Source of the DNA: an uncultured virus (IMG/VR IMGVR_UViG_3300042402_002237)
Taxonomy: Duplodnaviria; Heunggongvirae; Uroviricota; Caudoviricetes
Direction: 5' to 3' (one strand)
IMG/VR virus record: IMGVR_UViG_3300042402_002237
DNA length: 20,000 nt
Of the stretch, positions 1,906-17,855 are shown piece after piece (within the stretch, counting starts at the first letter, position 1; the number at the start of each line of letters is the position of its first letter). The notes under the pieces are model-generated. The model was not told where the DNA came from. It made no database searches and worked only from the letters and a program-made list of their open reading frames with translations. A program made the translations under genes and the position numbers.

Positions 1906-4653
1906 TTATGCTCCTGTGGTGGGTTTTGGTTGTAGTGCTGCCTGTACTGCCTGTTTAGCCATTTCGGCGTCAGTTAAAAACTGCTGTTTTTCAATCTCGA
2001 TACCATGCTGACGGATATCTTTCTCTGCCTCGTTTACTGCCTGGATACCAAGCATTGCCTGCTCTTGGGCGAGCGCCATCTCTTGGTTTGTTAGTTGCAA
2101 CTGCGCCTGCATAGCAGCCACCCGCTCGCGCGAGGAGTTGTTCATGCTGTTAATTGCGATGTTGGTGGAGTTCTTCTGGTTATCCAGCTCGGTTTGTACC
2201 TCGTATTTGCTCTGGAGTTCCAGTACTTTGCGCTGCAATTCGGCGATCTTAAGCTCGTAATCTTGCTGGGCCTTTGACTGCTCCATCTGCATTTTAAGCT
2301 GTGACTCTTGCTGTTTGCGCTGGGTCTCTGCCATCTGGGTCTTGAGAATAACCTGAGCCGTTGGGTCCTGGGCCGCAACTTTTTCCATCTGGGCCTGTTG
2401 TGCCTGCTGAACTTTAGCCGCCAGCTCTTGTATCTGGCCAATGTATGGCTGTAATGTTGTCTGCGCGTCTTGTCCAACCATCTGCGAAGCTAACGCCAAC
2501 GCCTGTTGAGATTCTAAATCTAATGGCTTCTCTTGGTTTAACTCTAACGTGTCCCGGCCACCTTGAGCCTGTGCAACGTATGCCCTCATCGATTGCAGGT
2601 AGTGCAGCGTTAAGTGTTGTTTAATGTGTTCTAACGCCAACGGTGCGTATGACGGCCCAATTACAGGGTTGCCGCCGTAGGCTGGGTTCGCAGCGTATTC
2701 TAAGTGAATCTTAATGTGGCTGATGTGATCTTGGTCGGGGTATGCCGCCGCTGGTCTGCCCATTGTCATCGAAACGTTTTCCAACGCTGGGTTTGACTCT
2801 TTCGCGCCCAATGGGTTTGGTAATATCTCGTCAATGTTAGGCACCTTGAGCTGGTGTAATACCCTGCGATACGCTGCCCGAATGTCAAACATTCCAGGTG
2901 GCGCTGATGTTGCCATCTGCAAGATAGCCTGGTTCTGAGCTAGACGTTGCGTCTCGGAGAAAATGTTGGGGTCAGATACTGGACGTACGTCGCTGTTGTA
3001 TGCAAAGTCACGTACACGAATTTCTTCGCCGGACTGGTTGTCCATCTCTTCCAAGTACCAGTGATTGATACGGGAGATAATTGCCAGCGATTTAGCTTGG
3101 CTGCGGTGTAGTCGTGCGTGAATGCTGGAGAATACCTTAGCGCCCTGCTCGATGAGAGCCTGGGCCGTACCAACCGGCATGTTGTTGTTTGCCTCACCAA
3201 TTTTTTCTTCTGCGGTGGTGACAACGCCTTTAGCCGCATCAGTTAACCAGCCAAGTAAGTTAAACAGTACGCTGGACGGTTGATTAAACGGCATTGGCAT
3301 CGCAATCTTGCGAACATCGTCAACGCCAGGTGCTCCTTCAATTTCTACTACTTGCGTAGGTTCGATTCGATCGCTTTGGCCACCAATTCGTCCACCCTTG
3401 AGCTTAAGTAGCGTTTGGGAATTATTAATATGCGCCGCGTCAAGGAGAGCGCGTAGAGCACCAGTGAGAGCAGCGCTAAGGCCGCCAATAAGATGGGGGA
3501 GACCAATAGCATAAGCGCCACGCCAAGGGATAAATTTAAACTCGACATACCAGTCCAGTTTTTCAAACTTCTCATCATTTGCTTCCCAGTTACGATACAG
3601 ACCCAAGACTTTACTTGTGGTCTCATCAATCATTAAAATGTAAGGGGCGCGTTGTCCCTTAGTTTTGTCGTCTTCATCCAAACGCATGAAGCAGGTAATC
3701 TCATAAACACGACGTAATCCGTCAATGTTTTTAGAAGGCATGTCTTTGCCTTCGATCTTGTTGTTTGCCTTTTCAGATTGCGTCTGATCGTTTAGCGGAG
3801 CATCGGAGGTGTACTCACTGTCGATGTCAATGTAGATACCGGCTTCAACGCGCTGCAAAAATGTGTCTTCGGTAATGTCTTGTACTTCGGTTACACGTTG
3901 CGCTGTGTAGAAGTTAGTCGACGCGTATGGTAACAAGATGTTATCAATCGCTACCCACTCGCAGATTGGTCGCTTTTGTTCTTCATCCCAGCGCCACTTA
4001 AGGAACTGTGATCCACCTAGTGGCAACTGAGTGAGCAACTGCTCCATCTCGTCGCGATACTCTGGCACCTGCTCGGTTAGCTGCCAGTTAAGGAAGTTAA
4101 CCTTACGATCTGCTGTCTCTTCTTTTATTCGGTCTGCTTCGCCCTTGATGTTGGACTTAACTAAACCATCGGGTGGAAGTAATTCCTTAGCCGTTGACGC
4201 AGCAAAGTCAACGCAGGCCTCTGCCATAACTGGGTGCACCACCTTGGAAGCACCGTCAAACGTCGCCCCTCCCGGTGCATCTTTTCCAAGCCCAGTTCTA
4301 CGCAATCCTTCTTCATACTGTTTATCTCGTTGTGTGCGCGACTCTTTGTCGGCGTCAATTAAATCCAAGTACTCCGTTGCGAGGGCCTGTAATGTTCCCT
4401 CATCAAACGACTCTGCCAGGTTCTCGTAGAACTCTGGATTCTTACGTGGACTTTGTTTTTCTTGGTAGTTGACAACAACCGATCCGTCTTCTAGTTCAAC
4501 TATTTCTTCTTCAACGTCGCCCGGTTCTAATCCCAGCGCGTCTTCGTAATAGTCCATCTCGGCATCTTGCGCCATGGCCTCTTGAATGTTTTCTTCGGTT
4601 TCAAGGCCCGGCAAATTTGCACCAGACTGAATAGGTAGTATTGGATTTGCCAT
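1906..4653 (-). CDS. Portal protein with long C-terminal coiled-coil extension
   Basis: 915 aa, two genes downstream of TerL; portal-like segments (VHPVMAEACVDF, LPLGGSQFLK, YAIGLPHLIG, GTAQALIEQG) and a Gln/Ala-rich helical tail resembling a P22-type barrel. Confidence 0.82.
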   Translation of the reverse strand: MANPILPIQSGANLPGLETEENIQEAMAQDAEMDYYEDALGLEPGDVEEEIVELEDGSVVVNYQEKQSPRKNPEFYENLAESFDEGTLQALATEYLDLIDADKESRTQRDKQYEEGLRRTGLGKDAPGGATFDGASKVVHPVMAEACVDFAASTAKELLPPDGLVKSNIKGEADRIKEETADRKVNFLNWQLTEQVPEYRDEMEQLLTQLPLGGSQFLKWRWDEEQKRPICEWVAIDNILLPYASTNFYTAQRVTEVQDITEDTFLQRVEAGIYIDIDSEYTSDAPLNDQTQSEKANNKIEGKDMPSKNIDGLRRVYEITCFMRLDEDDKTKGQRAPYILMIDETTSKVLGLYRNWEANDEKFEKLDWYVEFKFIPWRGAYAIGLPHLIGGLSAALTGALRALLDAAHINNSQTLLKLKGGRIGGQSDRIEPTQVVEIEGAPGVDDVRKIAMPMPFNQPSSVLFNLLGWLTDAAKGVVTTAEEKIGEANNNMPVGTAQALIEQGAKVFSSIHARLHRSQAKSLAIISRINHWYLEEMDNQSGEEIRVRDFAYNSDVRPVSDPNIFSETQRLAQNQAILQMATSAPPGMFDIRAAYRRVLHQLKVPNIDEILPNPLGAKESNPALENVSMTMGRPAAAYPDQDHISHIKIHLEYAANPAYGGNPVIGPSYAPLALEHIKQHLTLHYLQSMRAYVAQAQGGRDTLELNQEKPLDLESQQALALASQMVGQDAQTTLQPYIGQIQELAAKVQQAQQAQMEKVAAQDPTAQVILKTQMAETQRKQQESQLKMQMEQSKAQQDYELKIAELQRKVLELQSKYEVQTELDNQKNSTNIAINSMNNSSRERVAAMQAQLQLTNQEMALAQEQAMLGIQAVNEAEKDIRQHGIEIEKQQFLTDAEMAKQAVQAALQPKPTTGA

Positions 4654-5231: not shown

Positions 5232-5263
5232 ACTAATGCACAAATCCAGGGGTATCCGCCCTA
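5232..5263 (-). promoter_or_regulatory. Putative phage-sigma promoter TAGGGCGGAT-N13-TGCATTAGT (copy 2)
   Basis: Exact match to both boxes of copy 1; overlaps the TerL stop codon and faces the 5204 gene and portal. Confidence 0.75.
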
Positions 5264-6706
5264 CTGGGCGTAGGGGTTGGCAAATCGCTTGCTTAGGTCG
5301 TCGTCCACGTAACTATAGTCTCGAGCCGGTAGCGGGTCGAGCTGGATCCATCCAGAATCACGTAGAACGCGCAACGCTTGCGAGAGGGAGTCGACGTAGT
5401 CGTCGTGTCCACCAGCCTCTGGAAATGAACATACTTGACGCAGAAAACGTTTTGCCCAGTCTGCATATTCTCCTTTGCGTTGGGGTTCCTCTGGTATCCA
5501 GACTTTGCCCTTAGACACCAGCGGCGCGACAATGTTTAACCGTTGTACCTTATCGGCGCGTCCCGGGTTGTATCCCCTGACAGGCACACCAGCTCCCTGG
5601 AGCTCCTGGATCAGCGAAATACCCGCCGACTTATCTTCCATGAGGATCAGGTCCGCCTTTCGGCCCTTACCAAAGTCATTATCGGCGCCGTAAACGACCT
5701 CCTTAAAGTCGTTGATTACCTTCCTGCGTAACTCGGGGTAGGACAGGTGCTCGTCCCAAGCGTCCAGTAATATGATCGCTGTACCAGCGTCTTGTTGTTC
5801 AAACACGCCCCAGATGGTGCAGGCGGTTGGGTCGTTCATTGTTTTCTCAGAAGTCGCCGGGTCATACGACGCGATGACATACTCCAGTGTCGGAGTTGGC
5901 TTGTTGGCTGGCCAGAGCTTAAACTGTTTGCGTTTGATGATACCTGACTGTTCTGGGTCAAGGATCTCGCCATAGATCTCTTGTCTTCCAATGTCAGTTC
6001 CGTCATACGTTTCAAGCTGTTTGAAAAAAGTCTCTGAAAGGTTTGCTCGGTTGTCGTAGGACGACGCGTTTGATACGTATACATCCCCACCTACTTTCCC
6101 CTCGTTTAAATCTACAATTAATTCTTTTGGCTTGGGTGTGGTGGTAATAATCTGCTGCACTCGAGGGATGCGTGGGTCCCGTAGACGGAGGGTAAACTGT
6201 ACTCCATCGTAGGCATCGTCGATGTAATCAAATGCACACAGCTCGTCAAACCACGCCCCGTGATATTGTTTACCTCGGTAGCGCTCAGGCTCGGAGGCCG
6301 GGATCCCCTGTATAAGAGATCCATTTGTAAGGGTGATTTCAAACAGGGACTTGTTGTAGTCTCGAATGAGTGACGGGGGAATGATATTGAGAAGTCCAGA
6401 GTCCCCCTCGAAACAAGTTGCACGTATATCGTTTGAGGTGGGAGCGGTGACGAGCCAGCGGGTGTTGTCATACATCCAAGCCCGAATACCAATCCAGTGG
6501 CTAGCAGTGTGCGTTTTACCCGATCCACGACCGGCAAGCATAAGAAACGTGTCATATTCGCCATCCTCTGGCTCCCGTTGGTGTGGTAGCGCCTGTAGGT
6601 GCCACTTGACCTGCCAGATGGCAGCCTCAAGCTGTTCCTTAGGCCAGTGCTTGTTGCTATCTGCGAACTTTTTTAATACAAGCTCTTGTTTTGATGTTAA
6701 CGACAT
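5261..6706 (-). CDS. terL: Terminase large subunit
   Basis: Walker A AGRGSGKT, Walker B AWFDE, TTTP coupling motif, RNase H-like nuclease residues (YDPA, NDPTA, HDDYVDS). Confidence 0.95.
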   Translation of the reverse strand: MSLTSKQELVLKKFADSNKHWPKEQLEAAIWQVKWHLQALPHQREPEDGEYDTFLMLAGRGSGKTHTASHWIGIRAWMYDNTRWLVTAPTSNDIRATCFEGDSGLLNIIPPSLIRDYNKSLFEITLTNGSLIQGIPASEPERYRGKQYHGAWFDELCAFDYIDDAYDGVQFTLRLRDPRIPRVQQIITTTPKPKELIVDLNEGKVGGDVYVSNASSYDNRANLSETFFKQLETYDGTDIGRQEIYGEILDPEQSGIIKRKQFKLWPANKPTPTLEYVIASYDPATSEKTMNDPTACTIWGVFEQQDAGTAIILLDAWDEHLSYPELRRKVINDFKEVVYGADNDFGKGRKADLILMEDKSAGISLIQELQGAGVPVRGYNPGRADKVQRLNIVAPLVSKGKVWIPEEPQRKGEYADWAKRFLRQVCSFPEAGGHDDYVDSLSQALRVLRDSGWIQLDPLPARDYSYVDDDLSKRFANPYAQ

Positions 6707-7689
6707 GAAATAAAACCCTCTCCTACGAGATAGCTGTTATCTGGCCCGTCTGTTTCGATGTGAACACAGGTCTGCGGCTGGATCTTTGTAATTTTTTCGA
6801 TGTACCTACGCGCCTGGTGTACTTTTATCGGTTTAGATACCTGATTAGGTACCAGTTTTAACCTGGTTTTAAAAAATAGCGAGTAAATTTTCTTTTGTTC
6901 TGTAAAACTGAGCCGGGTCTTGCCACCCAGGGACTCAACTAGGCCCTGAACTGCCAGCGCCGTGCCATAATGTGTGGTCGAGAACCTAAACTGGTCTCTG
7001 TTTGTCGAATATTGCTGGGCCTTTGCAAACAAAATGCCACGTAGCAGCTCAATTCGCTGGTCTTTGTCCGCCAGCAGGTAGTTTGCCGGTAATTTTGTCG
7101 GAATATCTGGGGCCAACTGTGACTCTATGGTCGGCGATATGGTAAATTGGCGCCAGCCATTTTTCAAAGTCTTGCGAATCTTGACCTTGTACCCAAAATC
7201 TTTGAGTTGCTGCTCAACTTCTTCGGTTGTATCGGGGTTTGTTGTAAAATATCCGCTGGGTTTGCGGTTTATAAACCAGAACCCAAACACAAACGGCGGG
7301 ACTGGTAGGGTCTGGTGGGGTAGCTCGATGGGTTTTGTGGTAGGGATCGAATAGATCCGGTGGTTGTCTTCCCGCTTATGTCCCCGCTCTAACAAATTTT
7401 CCACGTTTATGGGCCGTAGTGGCCGCCTAAATGGGTGGTAGCCTTTGTACGTCATGGCACGCAGCCGGTACTTAAAGTTTTCCACCAAAAATTCCAGGCG
7501 TTTGTCCCCAGAAATTGTAAGGTAATCGTTTAACGTAACCTCGTAGCAGTCCTCTGAGAAGTATTCCTGGACCAGCTTTACCTTTACGGGTTTGCCGTTT
7601 TGGTCAAACAGGTAGTCACCCGGCTGGATTTTGTTTGCCGGTTTCCAGTAGTCCAAGGTCAGGACTTTTTGATTTGCTAGTATTGCCAT
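6697..7689 (-). CDS. Free-standing degenerate intein-like protein (Hint + LAGLIDADG-like)
   Basis: Hint N-terminal pattern (AILANQKVLT...KIQPGDYLFDQNGKPVKV), C-terminal block CVHIETDGPDNSYLVGEGFI, LAGLIDADG-like helices PPFVFGFWF and QRIELLRGILF. No exteins and no terminal His-Asn. Confidence 0.8.
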   Translation of the reverse strand: MAILANQKVLTLDYWKPANKIQPGDYLFDQNGKPVKVKLVQEYFSEDCYEVTLNDYLTISGDKRLEFLVENFKYRLRAMTYKGYHPFRRPLRPINVENLLERGHKREDNHRIYSIPTTKPIELPHQTLPVPPFVFGFWFINRKPSGYFTTNPDTTEEVEQQLKDFGYKVKIRKTLKNGWRQFTISPTIESQLAPDIPTKLPANYLLADKDQRIELLRGILFAKAQQYSTNRDQFRFSTTHYGTALAVQGLVESLGGKTRLSFTEQKKIYSLFFKTRLKLVPNQVSKPIKVHQARRYIEKITKIQPQTCVHIETDGPDNSYLVGEGFISCR

Positions 7690-7957
7690 AAAAATTATCT
7701 AGGACCCACAGGTCCAGCCAACGCCCTAACGGCGCCCTAATTTTGTTTTGGATCTCCACGGGCAGTCGGTTAATATCCATGTGCTCGCAGACCTTTAAAC
7801 GAAACTCGATGTACTTAGCCGTCTCTTTGTCCAATATTTCAACTGGCGCGTCGGCAGAGTCAAAGTGATACAGGTTACAGACCAGGACACGGAACCCCCT
7901 AAGTCTTCCATTAGAATCTTCTAGGGCACCCTGGATCTGGTAAACATATTCGTTCAT
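7616..7957 (-). CDS. Hypothetical protein, first gene of the leftward operon
   Basis: 113-aa ORF, ATG 6 nt after the TGCATTAGT box; overlaps the next gene by 74 nt. Confidence 0.65.
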   Translation of the reverse strand: MNEYVYQIQGALEDSNGRLRGFRVLVCNLYHFDSADAPVEILDKETAKYIEFRLKVCEHMDINRLPVEIQNKIRAPLGRWLDLWVLDNFYGNTSKSKSPDLGLLETGKQNPAG

Positions 7958-7963
7958 ACATCT

Positions 7964-7995
7964 ACTAATGCAAACATTTGATTATTATGGCCCCA
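7964..7995 (-). promoter_or_regulatory. Putative phage-sigma promoter (copy 3, TGGGGCCATA-N13-TGCATTAGT)
   Basis: Exact TGCATTAGT box; upstream box keeps T-GGGC in the same register. Confidence 0.65.
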
Positions 7996-8004
7996 CCTCA
8001 ATGC

Positions 8005-8021
8005 GATAGTTTTTAACTATC
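8005..8021. promoter_or_regulatory. OxyR/LysR-type palindrome GATAGTT-N3-AACTATC
   Basis: Contains ATAG-N7-CTAT, matching the OxyR unit ATAGntnnnanCTAT. Confidence 0.5.
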
Positions 8022-8039
8022 AATTTTGCTCGCAGAAGC

Positions 8040-8196
8040 GCGGCACTTGCGGCACTTGCGGGGGTATATTCCAGGTTTCCCTCTATCTTTATTTTTTATT
8101 TTTTAAAAATAATAAAAATAGTAAAGTAACCCCCGCAACCCCCGCATCCCCGTCAAACATCAAGGACTTAGCGCATTTCATTTCACATTGTGAAAT
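8040..8196. repeat. Origin-like element copy A: inverted GC-rich iterons around a 63-bp AT-rich core, plus IHF-like site and 15-bp palindrome
   Basis: GCGGCACTT x2 + GCGGGGGT (8040-8065), AT core 8066-8128, ACCCCCGCAACCCCCGC (8129-8145), CATCAAGGACTTA (8158-8170), TTTCACATTGTGAAA (8181-8195). Homologous to 15299-15495. Confidence 0.8.
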
Positions 8197-8338
8197 TTAC
8201 TATACAAATTTTACAAAAAAAATTTTAGAAAGTCGACTTTTGTGGGTAATGGAACGAGCTTGGGGTCTGTGGGGCCCCCAGCCGGCCGCCCCGCCACGGG
8301 ACCCAAATTGGCATACCGCATTATGAAAAAGCCCCCCG

Positions 8339-8395
8339 TGCACCAAAATGGTGCACAAATTCACCGCCTTGGTGCGTCTGCACCAACATGGTGCA
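8339..8395. promoter_or_regulatory. Three tandem NtrC-type boxes
   Basis: TGCACCAAAATGGTGCA (8339-8355), TTCACCGCCTTGGTGCG (8360-8376, degenerate), TGCACCAACATGGTGCA (8379-8395); NtrC consensus TGCACCA-N3-TGGTGCA. Confidence 0.8.
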
Positions 8396-8408
8396 CAGCT
8401 CGAGCGCT

Positions 8409-8566
8409 TCGATGTTAGTGAGCGCTCACTAACATCGAGGCACCGCGCCCCCCTGCCAAGTAGCGCATTGGTTAGTGAGTACTAACTAACATGGCCGAGC
8501 GCCCACTCTGTCCCCATTATCAGCACTCGATGTGCCTGAGTGCTAAGTTAGTAAGTGCTAACTAAC
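8409..8566. repeat. Three copies of 20-bp palindrome GTTAGTRAGYRCTMACTAAC (operator-like)
   Basis: 8414-8433 (within a perfect 30-bp palindrome 8409-8438), 8471-8490, 8547-8566. Confidence 0.85.
8520..8546. promoter_or_regulatory. CIRCE element (HrcA operator)
   Basis: TCAGCACTC-N9-GAGTGCTAA versus consensus TTAGCACTC-N9-GAGTGCTAA: 17/18 with the exact spacer. Confidence 0.85.
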
Positions 8567-8764
8567 ATGGCGCCCTGTTAGGGTAAATACCTATTGACGG
8601 ATTGGACGCGTTTTAAGGGGGCTAGGAGGCGCGCAGGGCAGAGATGATGGTTAGGTATCAACTCATTGACGATCGTTGAGCCATCGAGCTGGGGTGCCAC
8701 CACAAAGGCTTTGCGGGCGCGAGGGCGGATAGGTGGGGTGGGCGAGTGATCAGGTAATTTGAGT

Positions 8765-8790
8765 TACCACAATATCCCACAATCCCCCAC
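8765..8790 (-). promoter_or_regulatory. MraZ-type direct repeats
   Basis: Minus strand GTGGGG-GATT-GTGGGA-TATT-GTGGTA: three GTGG units at an exact 10-bp period, as in the mraZ/dcw promoter operator. Confidence 0.65.
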
Positions 8791-8817
8791 AGTTTAGTCA
8801 GGTATTTTATTTAGTTG

Positions 8818-8848
8818 TTTACATTTAATTCCAAAGGTCTGTACAATA
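8818..8848 (+). promoter_or_regulatory. Sigma70-like early promoter 1
   Basis: TTTACA-N18-TACAAT with AT-rich upstream DNA; shares AAAGGTCTGTAYAATA with the promoter at 13178. Confidence 0.7.
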
Positions 8849-8960
8849 GAGGGTATCGGAAGTGCAGTGGCTAATCCACTCAAACGCAAACCCAACCGCG
8901 ATCTATAAGGGGGAGCCGGCAGAACCGGTGCTGTTATCCAACACAGCGTATGCTAACAGA

Positions 8961-9008
8961 TAGTAATGCTCAGAGCGCATTGTAACCAGTGCGCTCGAGG
9001 CAGTACTA
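8961..9008 (+). other. Long bulged hairpin in early leader (RNase III-site-like)
   Basis: TAGTA...GAGCGCATTG-TAAC-CAGTGCGCTC...TACTA, directly before a CA-rich spacer and AGGAG RBS. Confidence 0.55.
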
Positions 9009-9031
9009 ACCAAACAACAGGAGATTACACC

Positions 9032-9285: not shown

Positions 9286-9337
9286 GGTCGAAACAGCCTA
9301 ACGGCTGTCTGCACGTTAGGCGTGCACTGATGAGACC
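9286..9337 (+). ncRNA. Type II hammerhead ribozyme 1
   Basis: GGTC-GAAA-[CAGCC TAAC GGCTG]-TC-[TGCACG TTAGG CGTGCA]-CTGATGA-GACC: full core, stems I and III closed, stem II open; GUC triplet, predicted cut after C9309. Confidence 0.93.
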
Positions 9338-9358
9338 ACACACAACACAGGAGAGCCT

Positions 9359-9757: not shown

Positions 9758-9759
9758 CA

Positions 9760-9809
9760 GGTCGAAACGCCGTGAGGCGTATGCACGTTAGGCGTGCACT
9801 GACGAGACC
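9760..9809 (+). ncRNA. Type II hammerhead ribozyme 2
   Basis: GGTC-GAAA-[CGCC GTGA GGCG]-TA-[TGCACG TTAGG CGTGCA]-CTGACGA-GACC; GUA triplet, predicted cut after A9781. Stem III differs from copy 1 but stays paired. Confidence 0.92.
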
Positions 9810-9829
9810 AAACAACGGAGAGTAATAAC

Positions 9830-13911: not shown

Positions 13912-14078
13912 AAATCATCGGCGCATTTATTGTAATGATCACTGGGTTTTGGTTTGCCCAAGGGATGTTTGATCTGTATACGATCTTGTGGTTTGTATTT
14001 GGGCTAGCAATGCTCATACCAACAGAAGTTTATAAAACATTATGGGAGCTATATGAAAGAAAACGACATTCTAAGTGA
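13908..14078 (+). CDS. Small two-helix membrane protein (likely TTG start)
   Basis: GGAGAGG RBS, TTGA overlap, two hydrophobic stretches and a basic tail. Confidence 0.6.
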   Translation: MKIIGAFIVMITGFWFAQGMFDLYTILWFVFGLAMLIPTEVYKTLWELYERKRHSK

Positions 14079-14625
14079 CTACCTCAAGTCGCTGTACGGC
14101 ATCGAGCCGTTGACAGTGGAGGAAGAGCACGAGCTCGCCAAGAGGATTCAAGCAGGCGACGAGGGTGCACTTGAGCAGTTGATCAAGCACAACCTGCGCT
14201 TTGTGGTCTACGTCGTCCGTAAGATGACGGCGTGGAACCACGGCAAGGTGCCAGTGGAGGACATGGTCGCCATGGGTAACGAGGCATTGTTTACGGCGGG
14301 TCGTAGGTGGGTGCCTAAGAACAACGCACGCTTTGCCACATACGCCAAGACGTTTATTGAGAAGGGCGTACGGCGTGACCTAGACAACACGGCAAACATC
14401 ATACGCCTGCCAATCAATATCATGGAGCAGGTAAAGAAGTTAAACTATACCGAGCGCTCGCTATCCCAAGTACTGGGGCGTAAGCCCAAGACGCACGAGA
14501 TCGCCACGCTCATGGGCGTCACAGAGAGCAAGGTGCACCAGTTGCAGGGATACATCGCACGTGAGCCAGTATCGCTCGACCACATCAACCAAGAGAAGTT
14601 TACCGAGGAGCATTTAGATGATTGA
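14053..14625 (+). CDS. RNA polymerase sigma-70-family factor (regions 1.2, 2, 3; no region 4)
   Basis: DYLKSL...PLTVEEEHELAKRIQAGD (1.2), LIKHNLRFVV and RFATYA (2), IRLP and LGRKP..EIA (3); ends shortly after PVSLD. Confidence 0.92.
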   Translation: MKENDILSDYLKSLYGIEPLTVEEEHELAKRIQAGDEGALEQLIKHNLRFVVYVVRKMTAWNHGKVPVEDMVAMGNEALFTAGRRWVPKNNARFATYAKTFIEKGVRRDLDNTANIIRLPINIMEQVKKLNYTERSLSQVLGRKPKTHEIATLMGVTESKVHQLQGYIAREPVSLDHINQEKFTEEHLDD

Positions 14626-15156: not shown

Positions 15157-15311
15157 GACGGGGCGATGACTACGGCGAGAAGATACGGCGAAAGTTCATC
15201 GAGCACGACCCCAAAATGGACAGGATGAGACGCACCGAGAACCTACTCCTGCTAATCCTGATCCTGTACCTCGGCGGGCACGTGATTTATGCCCTATTTT
15301 TCACAATGTGA
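15153..15311 (+). CDS. Small protein with C-terminal transmembrane helix (likely GTG start)
   Basis: GAGGT RBS, GTGA overlap, hydrophobic LLLLILILYLGGHVIYALFF. Confidence 0.55.
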   Translation: MRRGDDYGEKIRRKFIEHDPKMDRMRRTENLLLLILILYLGGHVIYALFFTM

Positions 15312-15495
15312 AACGAAGTGAGCTAAGTCATTGATGTTCGACGGGGATGCGGTACTTGCGGGGGTACTTTTACTATTTTTATGTTTTTTGAAAAATAAAA
15401 AATAAAGATAGAGCATAAACTGGAATAGACCCCCGCAACCCCCGCGAGCCCGTCAGACATCAAGGACTTACAGCAACTCATTTCACATTATGAAA
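15299..15495. repeat. Origin-like element copy B: 67-bp imperfect inverted arms around a 63-bp AT-rich core
   Basis: Arms 15299-15365 and 15429-15495 align without gaps; each has TTTCAYAATGTGAAA, an IHF-like CATCAAnGACTTA and GCGG iterons. Lies directly upstream of the primase-helicase gene. Confidence 0.82.
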
Positions 15496-15542: not shown

Positions 15543-17855
15543 ATGACAGATAAACCAATTTGCCTCCCCGTACAGTTCGCCACGATACCACTGGAATTGA
15601 AACGCATTCCAAGGTGGGTACTGTGGCGCCTTGTCGAGGTAGGCGACGAGAACAACAAGCGGTGGAGTAAACTGCCAACGCAGACAAGCGGTCAACCTGC
15701 CTCGTCAACCAACCCAGCGACGTGGACAGACTTTCCGTCAGTCCAACACGCCTACGAGGAAGACCCCGAGAAGTTTGCCGGTATCGGGTTCGTATTCACC
15801 CAAACCGACAACCTCATCGGCGTAGACTTGGACGACTGCTTTGACCACGTCACGGCGCGATTCACAAATGCTGCACTGCAACATATCTCCGACGAGCTCG
15901 AGGGCTACCACGAGGTCTCACCCAGTGGCACCGGCATTAAGATATTTACCCGAGCCGACCTAGCGCACGCCCACGTCGACCACAGCCAAGGGCTAGAGAT
16001 CTACCCACAGGGGAGGTTCTTTACAGTGACGGGGCACTACCTAGGTGGATCGATACCAACCGAGGCGCAAGACCTATCGGCGTTCATACCCGAGCGTGCA
16101 CTGCACGTGACTGGGGATGCGTTCGCTGATTATGTACCACCGGTCGAGGGCTACGACCTGCACCGAGTTGAGACCGAGCTCTTAACTAAGCTCGACCCCG
16201 ACTGCGGGTACACGGACTGGATGGGCGTGGGCTTTGCGCTCTTCCACCAGTTCGGCGGGGACGTAGAGGCCTGCGAGTTATGGGATCGTTGGAGCTCGCA
16301 GTCCGGCAAGTACGCATCGACCGGCATGAATAGTTGCGAGTCAAAGTGGCGCACGTTCAAGAGTGGTGGCGCGACTCTACGGAGCATTATCTTTAAGGTC
16401 AATCAGAAAGAGAGGGCGGATGCGCTCGCTCGGGGCGAGATAGTACTCGACTCGGGCGCGATGAATCACGCACGTACCTTTCTCGACGCGCTCTACTCTA
16501 GCGAGGAAGGCTATCGCCTAGTGCACTATGCGGAAGACTTTTTTATACACGCGGGCACGCACTACGAGATCATCGAGGAGGCAACGATACGCTCAAAGCT
16601 CTACGCGTTCCTTGATAAGTGTAAGAAACCGGCTAAGGGTGGTGCCTTGGTACCGTTTAACCCGTCACCAGCGAGCGTCTCGGCCTCTATGGATGCGATT
16701 AAGTCGATTGTGCACCTACCTAATCATGCAAACACCAAGCCACCGATTTGGTTTGAAGAGTATCAGGCAAATAAGCCCGACGCGTCGAAGTTGATCAGCG
16801 TCAAGAATGGCCTCTTTCACCTAGAGGACAAGATCTTATTGCCACACTCGCTCGGGTTTTTTACACAGCACTCGCTACCGTTTCAGTACGACCAAGGCGC
16901 GACCTGCCCGCAGTGGGACGCGTTCTTACAGTCGATATGGGAAGACGATCAGGAGTCGATCGACGCACTGCAGGAGATCTTCGGCTACATCCTGTCGGGA
17001 GACACGAGACAGCAGAAGTTTTTTAACATAATTGGTCCGCGACGTAGCGGTAAGGGCACGATCAACAAGGTGCTCGTATCTCTATTCGGACAGCACAACA
17101 CTGTCGCGCCACAATTGGAGGAGCTCTGTGATACATTTGGCTTACAACCATGGCTTGGAAAACCCCTTGCCTCATTTACTGACGCTCGTGCACCTGAGCG
17201 TAATCGTAGCGCTGTCGTTAGCCAGTTGTTGCGTATTGTGGGTGGTGATACTGTCACCGTTAATCGCAAGAATAAGGAGGCATGGTCGGGCTATCTGCCA
17301 ACGCGTATCATCGTATACTCGAACGAGGCGTTGCAATTAACCGAGAACAGTAACGCGCTCACCGGTCGTATGTTGGTGCTACGCATGACCAAGTCATTCT
17401 ACGACAACGAAGACACCGACCTGTTTAACAAGCTATCCGGCGAGTTGGCCGGTATCTTTAACTGGGCCATGGCCGGACTTGATCGCAGACTGTCACGTGG
17501 CGGTCACTTTAGACAACCACAGTCGGGCAGACAGTTGTTGCTGTTGATGGAGCAGTTGGGCAACCCACTGAACTCGTTCGTCGAGGACACGTTCGTGTTT
17601 GACCCAACGTCGCAGGTTAAGAAGGACGACGTATTCCTGTGTTGGAAGAGGTGGGCGGTTAGACGTAGTTTGCCACCCGGCTCGGAGATGTCGTTCAAGC
17701 GCAGGTTCTTAGCGGCGACACAAGAGAAACGCATCGAGACAGGCGAGAGCCGAGCAGATGGTGAGCGCGTGCCAATTTACCTTGGCATACGATTTAACAC
17801 ATCGGCCGGCGAGTACTTAAAATCAGTCGAAACATTTGAAACGGAAGGATATTGA
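15543..17855 (+). CDS. Primase-polymerase (AEP) / PriCT-2 / D5-P4-type SF3 helicase fusion
   Basis: GVDLDDC and EVSPSGTGIKIF (prim-pol; K where His is common), YTDWMGVGFAL...WDRWS (PriCT-2), VKNGLF (D5_N), Walker A GPRRSGKGT, GGD.V...RK and SNE (SF3 motifs). Confidence 0.92.
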   Translation: MTDKPICLPVQFATIPLELKRIPRWVLWRLVEVGDENNKRWSKLPTQTSGQPASSTNPATWTDFPSVQHAYEEDPEKFAGIGFVFTQTDNLIGVDLDDCFDHVTARFTNAALQHISDELEGYHEVSPSGTGIKIFTRADLAHAHVDHSQGLEIYPQGRFFTVTGHYLGGSIPTEAQDLSAFIPERALHVTGDAFADYVPPVEGYDLHRVETELLTKLDPDCGYTDWMGVGFALFHQFGGDVEACELWDRWSSQSGKYASTGMNSCESKWRTFKSGGATLRSIIFKVNQKERADALARGEIVLDSGAMNHARTFLDALYSSEEGYRLVHYAEDFFIHAGTHYEIIEEATIRSKLYAFLDKCKKPAKGGALVPFNPSPASVSASMDAIKSIVHLPNHANTKPPIWFEEYQANKPDASKLISVKNGLFHLEDKILLPHSLGFFTQHSLPFQYDQGATCPQWDAFLQSIWEDDQESIDALQEIFGYILSGDTRQQKFFNIIGPRRSGKGTINKVLVSLFGQHNTVAPQLEELCDTFGLQPWLGKPLASFTDARAPERNRSAVVSQLLRIVGGDTVTVNRKNKEAWSGYLPTRIIVYSNEALQLTENSNALTGRMLVLRMTKSFYDNEDTDLFNKLSGELAGIFNWAMAGLDRRLSRGGHFRQPQSGRQLLLLMEQLGNPLNSFVEDTFVFDPTSQVKKDDVFLCWKRWAVRRSLPPGSEMSFKRRFLAATQEKRIETGESRADGERVPIYLGIRFNTSAGEYLKSVETFETEGY

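Follow-up and report, generated by a model that had tools for sequence, protein, structure and literature searches.

The virus record IMGVR_UViG_3300042402_002237 (IMG/VR) holds 20,000 nucleotides (nt) of a tailed-phage genome, whose DNA is present in lake-water metagenomes. We analysed this whole stretch, hereafter the window, and in particular the non-coding gap that separates its leftward late (packaging/head) operon from its rightward early operon. The minus strand carries a GroES-like gene (988-1428), the portal gene (1906-4653), the large terminase gene (5261-6706; 481 amino acids (aa), both terminase domains) and, next to the gap, an open reading frame (ORF) of 113 aa (7616-7957). The plus strand carries, from 9032, many small early ORFs and a primase-helicase gene (15543-17855); dozens of the early ORFs have no assigned family. 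The gap, delimited by the ORF list and by family scans of the flanking genes, contains phage-specific palindromes together with candidate operators for three host regulators, namely NtrC, HrcA (whose operator is CIRCE, the controlling inverted repeat of chaperone expression) and MraZ. The features are the following (strand given where one applies):

7958-9031: non-coding gap between the late and early operons
8005-8021: palindrome GATAGTT-TTT-AACTATC in the late-operon leader, left outer palindrome of inverted-repeat copy 1
8041-8172: large inverted-repeat element, copy 1, with GC-rich 9-bp repeats (8041-8067), an AT-rich core of about 60 bp, mirrored repeats (8128-8154) and CATCAAGGACTTAGC (8158-8172)
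8181-8195: 7-1-7 palindrome TTTCACA-T-TGTGAAA (TTTCACATTGTGAAA), a few bases downstream of the predicted leftward start
8208-8236, minus strand: predicted leftward sigma-70-type promoter TCGACT-N17-TAAAAT (9/12 positions; hexamers 0.86 conserved)
8339-8395: three NtrC-type boxes, perfect at 8339-8355 and 8379-8395, weak at 8360-8376 (2 mismatches), with centres 21 and 19 bp apart
8409-8438: 30-bp perfect palindrome of a phage-specific class, containing GTTAGTGAGCGCTCACTAAC (first 20-bp palindrome)
8471-8490: GTTAGTGAGTACTAACTAAC, second 20-bp palindrome
8520-8546: CIRCE-type element TCAGCACTC-N9-GAGTGCTAA
8547-8566: GTTAGTAAGTGCTAACTAAC, third 20-bp palindrome, abutting the CIRCE-type element
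8578-8602: TTAGGGTAAATACCTA, a degenerate TAGGGT-NN-ACCCTA, then the conserved TTGACGGATT
8767-8791, minus strand: MraZ-type operator GTGGG/GTGGG/GTGGT with an exact 10-bp period
8795-8805: conserved box TAGTCAGGTAT between the GTGGG repeats and the early promoter (identity 0.90), also found in distant relatives
8818-8847, plus strand: predicted early promoter TTTACA-N18-TACAAT (10/12 positions; hexamers 0.86 conserved)
8957-9012, plus strand: conserved hairpin in the early-operon 5' leader (fold z-score -6.5; identity 0.91)
15301-15485: inverted-repeat element, copy 2, with TTTCACA-N-TGTGAAA-type palindromes on both sides, ending 58 bp before the primase ATG (15543)

An earlier note on this DNA had described about 800 bp of gene-free sequence densely packed with operators of unrelated host regulators. 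Gene-free and motif-dense it is: the gap holds no ORF longer than 58 aa and no tRNA, and its eight palindromes (arms of at least 7, spacers of at most 9) compare with 0.65 in dinucleotide shuffles, none of 300 shuffles reaching eight. As the 67 coding windows of gap length contained 0.54 palindromes on average and two at most, the excess is about 12-fold over shuffled or coding DNA. An Rfam scan of the gap returned nothing relevant, its sole match being a meaningless miRNA.

The host-type sites are not random either, and the same goes for the three GTTAGT-N8-ACTAAC palindromes and for TTTCACATTGTGAAA. The pattern TGCACC-N5-GGTGCA occurs five times in the 20 kb at up to two mismatches, as compared with 0.89 expected, and 0 of 200 shuffles reached five. 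The CIRCE-type element matches 17 of the 18 positions of TTAGCACTC-N9-GAGTGCTAA (0.01 expected), and the three CCACA repeats that form the plus-strand view of 8767-8791 were never obtained at an exact 10-bp period in 200 shuffles. Comparison with shuffles therefore upheld the NtrC boxes, CIRCE, the CCACA triplet and the density of palindromes, but not ATAG-N7-CTAT at 8006, which is the palindrome at 8005-8021 under another description: this low-information pattern had at least one match in 29 of the 200 shuffles.

For comparison among relatives, we retained the best 80 of 386 IMG/VR stretches encoding TerL (large terminase) relatives and anchored the homologous interval on the 113-aa gene. The anchor was present in 65 loci, 44 of which had at least 1100 nt, 39 of them unique. 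Two (L016 and L067) were left out and three contigs binned in a metagenome-assembled genome (MAG) were added, giving 40 sequences including the window, which are not phylogenetically independent. A shared motif vocabulary recurs among them in varying combinations:

NtrC-type boxes: 33 of 40 sequences
GTTAGT palindromes: 29 of 40
TAGGGT-NN-ACCCTA: 25 of 40
TTTCACA-N-TGTGAAA: 23 of 40
GTGGG three times: 18 of 40
TGAKAAT-N-ATTMTCA (7-1-7): 17 of 40, none in the window
CIRCE (up to two mismatches): 10 of 40
sigma-54-like sites: 10 of 40

This comparison, which the earlier note had proposed, revealed modular swapping of sites. Within 8400-8570, close relatives differ by the duplication, loss or replacement of units, the CIRCE module moves together with conserved flanks, and Fur-like 7-1-7 boxes of relatives replace TTTCACA-N-TGTGAAA at the same positions. 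The GTGGG triplet, where present, is found in the same place, always directly upstream of the early-promoter block.

The sites are also conserved as motifs. An alignment of the window with its 13 closest relatives (those whose 113-aa protein is at least 80% identical) gave an identity of 0.80 over the whole gap. The arms of the NtrC boxes reach 0.91 and 0.92, as compared with 0.64 and 0.28 for their spacers, the 20-bp palindromes 0.88-0.93, as compared with 0.69-0.84 between palindromes, and GATAGTT-TTT-AACTATC 1.00. The expected conservation relative to flanks was thus observed for the NtrC arms, the 20-bp palindromes and ATAG-N7-CTAT, but not for GGTAA-N6-TTACC, which is present at 8753 and has an identity of 0.55 only.

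The 40 gap sequences (51.9 kb) contain 53 perfect 6-5-6 NtrC-type boxes (51 with 7-bp arms), distributed among 29 sequences, while about 0.003 would be expected by chance, and there are 27 different spacers among 74 NtrC-type boxes. In contigs of 41-52 kb, GCACC-N5-GGTGC is confined to this one cluster. Two perfect boxes 15-45 bp apart are found in 53 of 2.9 million viral contigs; as 49 of these 53 have a homologue of the 113-aa gene adjacent, tandem perfect boxes are a hallmark of the clade. Four viral contigs (L164, L161, L180, and L183) carry tandem perfect boxes with no 113-aa gene nearby; in one of them (L164:1460-1700), about 10 boxes lie within 240 bp, adjoining an HNH endonuclease gene.

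As for CIRCE, the element is perfect (18/18) in relatives L013 and L025. Perfect CIRCE elements were also found in more than 113 viral contigs, and two-copy arrays in L202, L248, and L262. An unrelated IMG/VR contig of 41.9 kb (L240:1455-1640) carries four tandem CIRCE-type elements alternating with AAGTTAGA-N-TCTAACA palindromes; the array is non-coding, precedes a sigma-70-like promoter, and is flanked by ORFs without family. In the window too, CIRCE is directly followed by a GTTAG..CTAAC palindrome (8547).

At the DNA level, no match to the gap was found among 50,697 phage records. The nearest GenBank records by TerL protein are MW202545 (53% identity) and the Caulobacter phages GB2A, RW, RLK, and KcrB (42%), and the cassette is missing from the distant relatives GB2A and MW202545. 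A 1.37-kb unannotated stretch of MW202545 appears coding and is devoid of palindromes.

A TerL scan of 185,579 species genomes returned three contigs, all from one MAG (G002, "uncultured beta proteobacterium", 3.1 Mb), in which three phage contigs of the clade are co-binned. This candidate host encodes HrcA, an NtrB-NtrC pair, MraZ, Fur, and RpoN, and its own operators match the sites in the gap. The consensus strings used for CIRCE, NtrC, sigma-54, MraZ, and Fur were checked against the sites of this MAG only. With at most one mismatch, TGCACC-N5-GGTGCA occurs 16 times in G002, versus once for a reversed control; six of these boxes are on the phage contigs and ten on host contigs (five inside ORFs). 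In the host, one box is 84 bp upstream of glnA-ntrB-ntrC and another 136 bp upstream of a Gcw_chp-glnK operon, so that the NtrC assignment made in the earlier note holds. So does the assignment of CIRCE to HrcA, as one of the two CIRCE elements of G002 precedes groES-groEL by about 60 nt and the other an rpoH-like sigma gene by 12 nt, and that of the GTGGG repeats to MraZ, as GTGGG/GTGTG/GTGGG at a 10-bp period directly precedes mraZ, in the same layout as the phage GTGGG/GTGGG/GTGGT. The CIRCE before the rpoH-like gene is perfect (G002:C68:31716-31742, L099). The only perfect NtrC-type box on the host contigs (G002:C53:62507-62523, L098) is located inside the ntrC coding sequence.

Two further classes were counted in this MAG. 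The sigma-54 promoter pattern has 42 matches, two of them on a phage contig (C42), as compared with 8 for the control. The Fur-like 7-1-7 class has, with at most one mismatch, three host sites versus two for the control; a tandem pair among the host sites precedes a cupredoxin-like gene. The possibility that the gap is captured host DNA was rejected, as it has no DNA homology to G002.

The phage itself lacks these regulators. No ORF of the window matches an NtrC/Fis-type helix-turn-helix (HTH), HrcA, MraZ, or Fur family, even at E = 0.5, and MraZ, HTH_8, HrcA, and Fur domains were found in none of six phage records (G001 and G003-G007; 29-52 kb, 44-81% complete). One RpoN-DBD match, below the family cut-off, was detected in G004. 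The statement that no gene of the window resembles these regulators is therefore correct for NtrC, HrcA, and MraZ, both in the window and in six longer phage contigs.

Other palindromes of the gap had been listed in the same array by the earlier note, and here the outcome differs. GTTAGT-N8-ACTAAC is perfect at 8414, 8471, and 8547 and has no match in G002, where GTTAGT-N4-ACTAAC is found 5 times (26 for the control) and TAGGGT-NN-ACCCTA 5 times on host contigs (9 for the control). TTTCACA-N-TGTGAAA is present in one to three copies per phage contig and at most once on host contigs, at a contig end. Because these palindromes show no enrichment in the candidate host and have extra copies elsewhere in phage genomes, we consider the GTTAGT, TAGGGT, and TTTCACA classes to be phage-specific. 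On the evidence of this MAG, host operators were rejected for all three classes, which include the three 20-bp palindromes and TAGG-N7-CCTA (8579, within 8578-8602) of the earlier note. In related phages, perfect GTTAGT-N4-ACTAAC sites, extended to about 22 bp, also lie inside DNA polymerase A and SNF2-type helicase genes (G004:C1:19762 and 29761, G006:C1:6823; L125, L129, and L122), recalling "stoperator"-like sites.

The left third of the gap is occupied by the inverted-repeat element, which spans about 190 bp in all: outer palindrome, GC-rich 9-bp repeats, AT core, mirrored repeats, and second outer palindrome. A second copy of 8041-8195 is located directly upstream of the primase-helicase gene, so that the two copies bracket the entire early gene block; a second copy is present in G001 as well. 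In the G004 lineage, 7-1-7 palindromes of different sequence occupy the outer positions of the element, and in distant relatives palindromes of other sequence stand where the window has that of 8005-8021. Possible roles of the element are those of an origin, of a packaging signal or terminal-repeat boundary, and of a regulated barrier that separates temporal gene classes. Several host-factor sites suggested for this region dissolve into it. The OxyR reading of 8006 is not supported, the motif being a low-information match within this repeated phage element; CATCAA-N4-TTA at 8158, taken for an IHF site, lacks the IHF core WATCAANNNNTTR and is part of an arm of the same element, to which the 8181 palindrome belongs as well; and the supposed variant at 8314 is not within two mismatches of the 8181 palindrome. 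The IscR reading, for TAGTCAGGTAT at 8795, is not supported either. A GC-rich "hairpin" at 8255-8310 was also discarded, since it folds no better than shuffles (z = +0.5).

We propose, with a probability of about one half, that the gap is a hub which controls the divergent early and late promoters and senses the state of the host. Such a hub would be built of interchangeable short modules of two kinds. In the phage-specific kind, GTTAGT..ACTAAC, TAGGGT..ACCCTA, TTTCACA-N-TGTGAAA, and the inverted-repeat element would be read by phage proteins as operators, and possibly serve as an origin or packaging signal. The host-regulator kind would comprise a three-site NtrC enhancer (8339-8395), one HrcA operator (8520-8546), and an MraZ operator (8767-8791) upstream of the early promoter, so that nitrogen status, chaperone load, and the division programme of the host would bear on phage transcription. 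In some relatives, this coupling would pass through canonical NtrC-activated sigma-54 promoters. The phage thus probably reads the physiological state of its host, and may disturb it. That the regulators bind these sites, and in which direction they would act, we infer from the DNA sequence.

The two sigma-70-type promoters of the gap are predictions of a consensus scan. The AT-rich block of the leftward one, with AATTTTACAAAAAAAATT and AAAGTCGACTTT, recurs in distant relatives, and the MraZ-type repeats end about 27 bp upstream of the predicted early -35, reading on the opposite strand and neither overlapping nor following the promoter. Perfect TGGCACG-N4-TTGCW promoters number 12, in 7 of 45 unique clade regions, as compared with none for a reversed control. 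For example, L088 carries two successive units of an NtrC box, 19 bp, and a sigma-54 promoter, aimed at the early genes; in L039 and L078, sigma-54-like sites form face-to-face palindromic pairs. All ten sequences with sigma-54-like sites also have NtrC boxes. The premise that the sites lie far from any promoter is therefore weak, with two predicted promoters in the gap and sigma-54 promoters beside the boxes of some relatives.

Several observations weigh against the hub. The number of boxes varies from 0 to about 9 (in L076, up to about 9 stand edge to edge), their spacing is variable and their helical phasing weak (R of about 0.33, from non-independent data). The boxes of the window overlap neither predicted sigma-70 promoter, being located about 100-190 bp upstream of the leftward one, and promoter-like sites of this type are not enriched over shuffles. 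A strict sigma-54 promoter lies within 500 bp in only 7 of the 45 clade regions, and there is no canonical one beside the NtrC boxes in the lineage of the window, where sigma-54-like matches are at chance level (13 versus 11.9 expected) and the sole candidate, AGGCACATCGAGTGCT (minus strand, 8537-8522), is nested in CIRCE. CIRCE itself is accessory (10 of 40 sequences) and has no chaperone gene next to it, the nearest genes, which are not chaperones, being 485-560 bp away. Linkage to the GroES-like gene of the phage was considered and rejected, as the gene is present at 17 of 17 loci and CIRCE at 2 of those 17. Finally, the candidate host was proposed from co-binning in a single MAG, which is no more than a hint.

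The alternative that survives best, possible if unlikely, is a multi-regulator decoy: unwired sites would titrate NtrC, HrcA, and MraZ (in relatives E-sigma54, and perhaps Fur) during replication and so reprogram host regulons. For example, titration of HrcA would derepress groESL and rpoH, and GroEL would be supplied to the GroES-like co-chaperonin of the phage. That the phage encodes a GroES homologue fits this idea, as do the quality of its sites, at or above the host consensus (53 perfect boxes in 51.9 kb versus one in the 3.1-Mb host), and their unconstrained number, which rises to about 9 adjoining boxes in L076 and to about 10 boxes in L164. Moreover, 38 of the 45 lineages keep boxes with no canonical sigma-54 promoter, the face-to-face pairs are an odd layout for transcription, and the boxes form one cluster only per 41-52-kb contig. 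In bacteria, synthetic or multicopy decoy sites are reported to be effective in titration (PMC7826281, PMC8599769). On the other hand, CIRCE and the MraZ operator are single in each genome and both accessory (10 and 18 of 40), the GTGGG repeats and the CIRCE module are fixed in position, with conserved flanks and beside promoter-like sequence, and the tandem units of box and sigma-54 promoter in relatives point toward early genes. Titrating an activator such as NtrC would bring the phage no obvious benefit, CIRCE is unlinked to the GroES-like gene, and no natural phage transcription-factor sponge appeared in the texts that our literature search returned. Given the predicted promoters in the gap and the sigma-54 promoters in relatives, the decoy model is not needed.

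Sensing and titration might also be combined. The gap would then be an evolvable plug-in cassette of super-consensus sites that both reads host state and soaks up NtrC, HrcA, and MraZ (in relatives E-sigma54, and perhaps Fur), rewiring nitrogen, chaperone, and division regulons as a natural multi-regulator sponge; we hold this to be improbable.

It is quite improbable that all palindromes are operators of phage-encoded proteins among the small early genes, their host likeness being incidental or a mimicry that competes for sites. Several classes of the array are clearly phage-specific, as detailed above, the 7-1-7 palindromes of different sequence swap at the same positions between lineages, like immunity variants, and dozens of early ORFs without family leave room for such proteins. 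This explanation has to face exact and independent matches to three unrelated host motifs (CIRCE at 18/18 in relatives, 7-bp NtrC arms, and the 10-bp GTGGG period), the true sigma-54 promoters of relatives, and a phage with no ORF bearing a Fis/NtrC-type HTH, HrcA, MraZ, or Fur domain.

A region devoted mainly to replication origin and/or packaging (pac or terminal-repeat boundary), in which palindromes would be iterons or terminase/initiator sites and host-factor sites part of the origin architecture, is very unlikely. It would suit the inverted-repeat element, whose GC-rich 9-mers surround an AT core, whose copies fold better than shuffles (z = -4.1 for copy 1 and -5.5 for copy 2), and which is found next to the terminase operon and again directly before the primase-helicase gene. 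Furthermore, the GC skew changes sign in the gap region, and the cultured relative GB2A (TerL 42% identical) packages its DNA with 2.9-kb terminal repeats adjoining the terminase genes. Such a function would account for 8005-8200 but not for the NtrC, CIRCE, and MraZ sites; besides, the skew switch coincides with the coding-strand switch, and any repeat present in two copies can be expected to break contigs in its vicinity, as seen for this element.

Finally, that the palindromes are RNA hairpins of a non-coding transcript or leader (for processing, stability, or termination) instead of DNA operators is barely plausible: NtrC box 1 forms a terminator-like hairpin with a T-run on the minus strand and the 5' leader hairpin (8957-9012) is clearly structural, but the arms of 55 distinct NtrC-type boxes are invariant and show no compensatory variants, keeping sequence and not just pairing, no Rfam family was assigned, and the GTGGG triplet is a direct repeat, not a hairpin. 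For the leader hairpin, paired base changes in the alignment of relatives suggest an RNA structure.

The components of the proposed hub can be compared with known systems. The glnAp2-type NtrC enhancer with its sigma-54 promoter is a textbook arrangement in proteobacteria. The gap shares with it the box consensus, two strong sites and one weak site about two helical turns apart and, in some relatives, a nearby TGGCACG-N4-TTGCW; it differs by having no canonical sigma-54 promoter within reach in the lineage of the window, by a box number of 0 to about 9, and by the palindromic sigma-54-like pairs of some relatives. The CIRCE/HrcA operator is a 9-N9-9 inverted repeat of groESL and dnaK operons, which the phage element matches at 17 of 18 positions (18 of 18 in relatives) and which the candidate host, possessing HrcA, uses; unlike in those operons, the phage element does not lie between a promoter and a chaperone gene, the GroES-like gene being about 7 kb downstream. 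The MraZ-type site has the repeat layout of the Escherichia coli MraZ operator at the dcw-cluster promoter, with three GTGGG-type direct repeats at an exact 10-bp period. In the host, the repeats lie between the promoter and mraZ, whereas the phage repeats are upstream of the -35 and on the opposite strand.

Phage control regions with multiple operators are also known, such as OR/OL of lambda, the conserved inverted repeats of phiC31, and the stoperators of mycobacteriophages. As in those, phage-specific palindromes are repeated here, some dispersed and, in relatives, some intragenic; unlike in those, no repressor gene was identified, and the array is interleaved with host-regulator sites. Titration of a transcription factor by decoy sites is exemplified by multicopy Fur boxes, and the gap resembles such cases in offering clustered sites, seemingly of a high-affinity type, on DNA that becomes multicopy. 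In contrast, the Fur-box cases and the synthetic decoys (reported in PMC7826281 and PMC8599769) are laboratory constructs or chromosomal sites.

The closest parallel concerns nitrogen. Some phages borrow single host regulators, as illustrated by LexA, NtcA, and PhoB. Cyanophage genomes contain 1-16 sites for the host regulator NtcA (Sullivan et al. 2010, PMC3037559), by which these phages would take advantage of the response of the host to nitrogen stress, presumably so as to drive their own genes under that stress. Like these marine cyanophage NtcA (and Pho-box) promoters, the gap bears sites for a global nitrogen regulator of the host in a lytic phage devoid of the regulator itself. Unlike them, it involves NtrC (with sigma-54 in some relatives) and a probable betaproteobacterial host, and its sites are gathered in one intergenic cluster instead of being spread over promoters, and are combined with HrcA- and MraZ-type operators.

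Here, a single compact and modular cassette, the hallmark of an abundant, uncultured freshwater phage clade, joins near-perfect sites for three unrelated host regulators to phage-specific operators. Within the texts returned by our literature search, no report mentions NtrC/sigma-54, CIRCE, or MraZ sites in phage control regions. If functional, the cassette would be a case of phage transcription coupled to NtrC/sigma-54, for which the same texts contain no earlier report. It would also reveal how infection by lytic phages of oligotrophic bacteria is timed according to nitrogen limitation and proteotoxic load, and would offer a tangible system in which the titration of host regulators by phage DNA could be examined. 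The motif content further predicts the host, namely a proteobacterium with NtrC/sigma-54, HrcA, and MraZ.

The genes around the gap call for a few additional remarks. Protein Atlas look-ups of the gap-flanking 113-aa and 83-aa proteins gave no usable lead. A 330-aa ORF (6697-7689, minus strand), which overlaps the 481-aa ORF, is terminase-like, with an N-terminal-like match only; in the annotation of Caulobacter phage GB2A, the large terminase is in two parts, with a DNA methyltransferase gene in between. On the plus strand, a 190-aa ORF (14053-14625) encodes a sigma-70-type factor with regions 1.2, 2, and 3, in which no region 4 was detected, and is followed by an overlapping 115-aa ORF (to 14965, plus strand) without family match. 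The phage sigma-70-type factor may thus be split or atypical.

Lastly, a hammerhead type II-like motif is located between early genes (9286-9347, plus strand). At 31.5 bits, it falls short of the gathering score of 37; its CUGAUGA and GAAAC cores are intact, and its stem TGCACGTTAGGCGTGCA is found at 9310 and 9782. A similar copy lies near 9758-9820, and relatives (e.g., L013 and L015) have up to three such motifs between early genes, which may act in ribozyme processing of the early polycistronic RNA.

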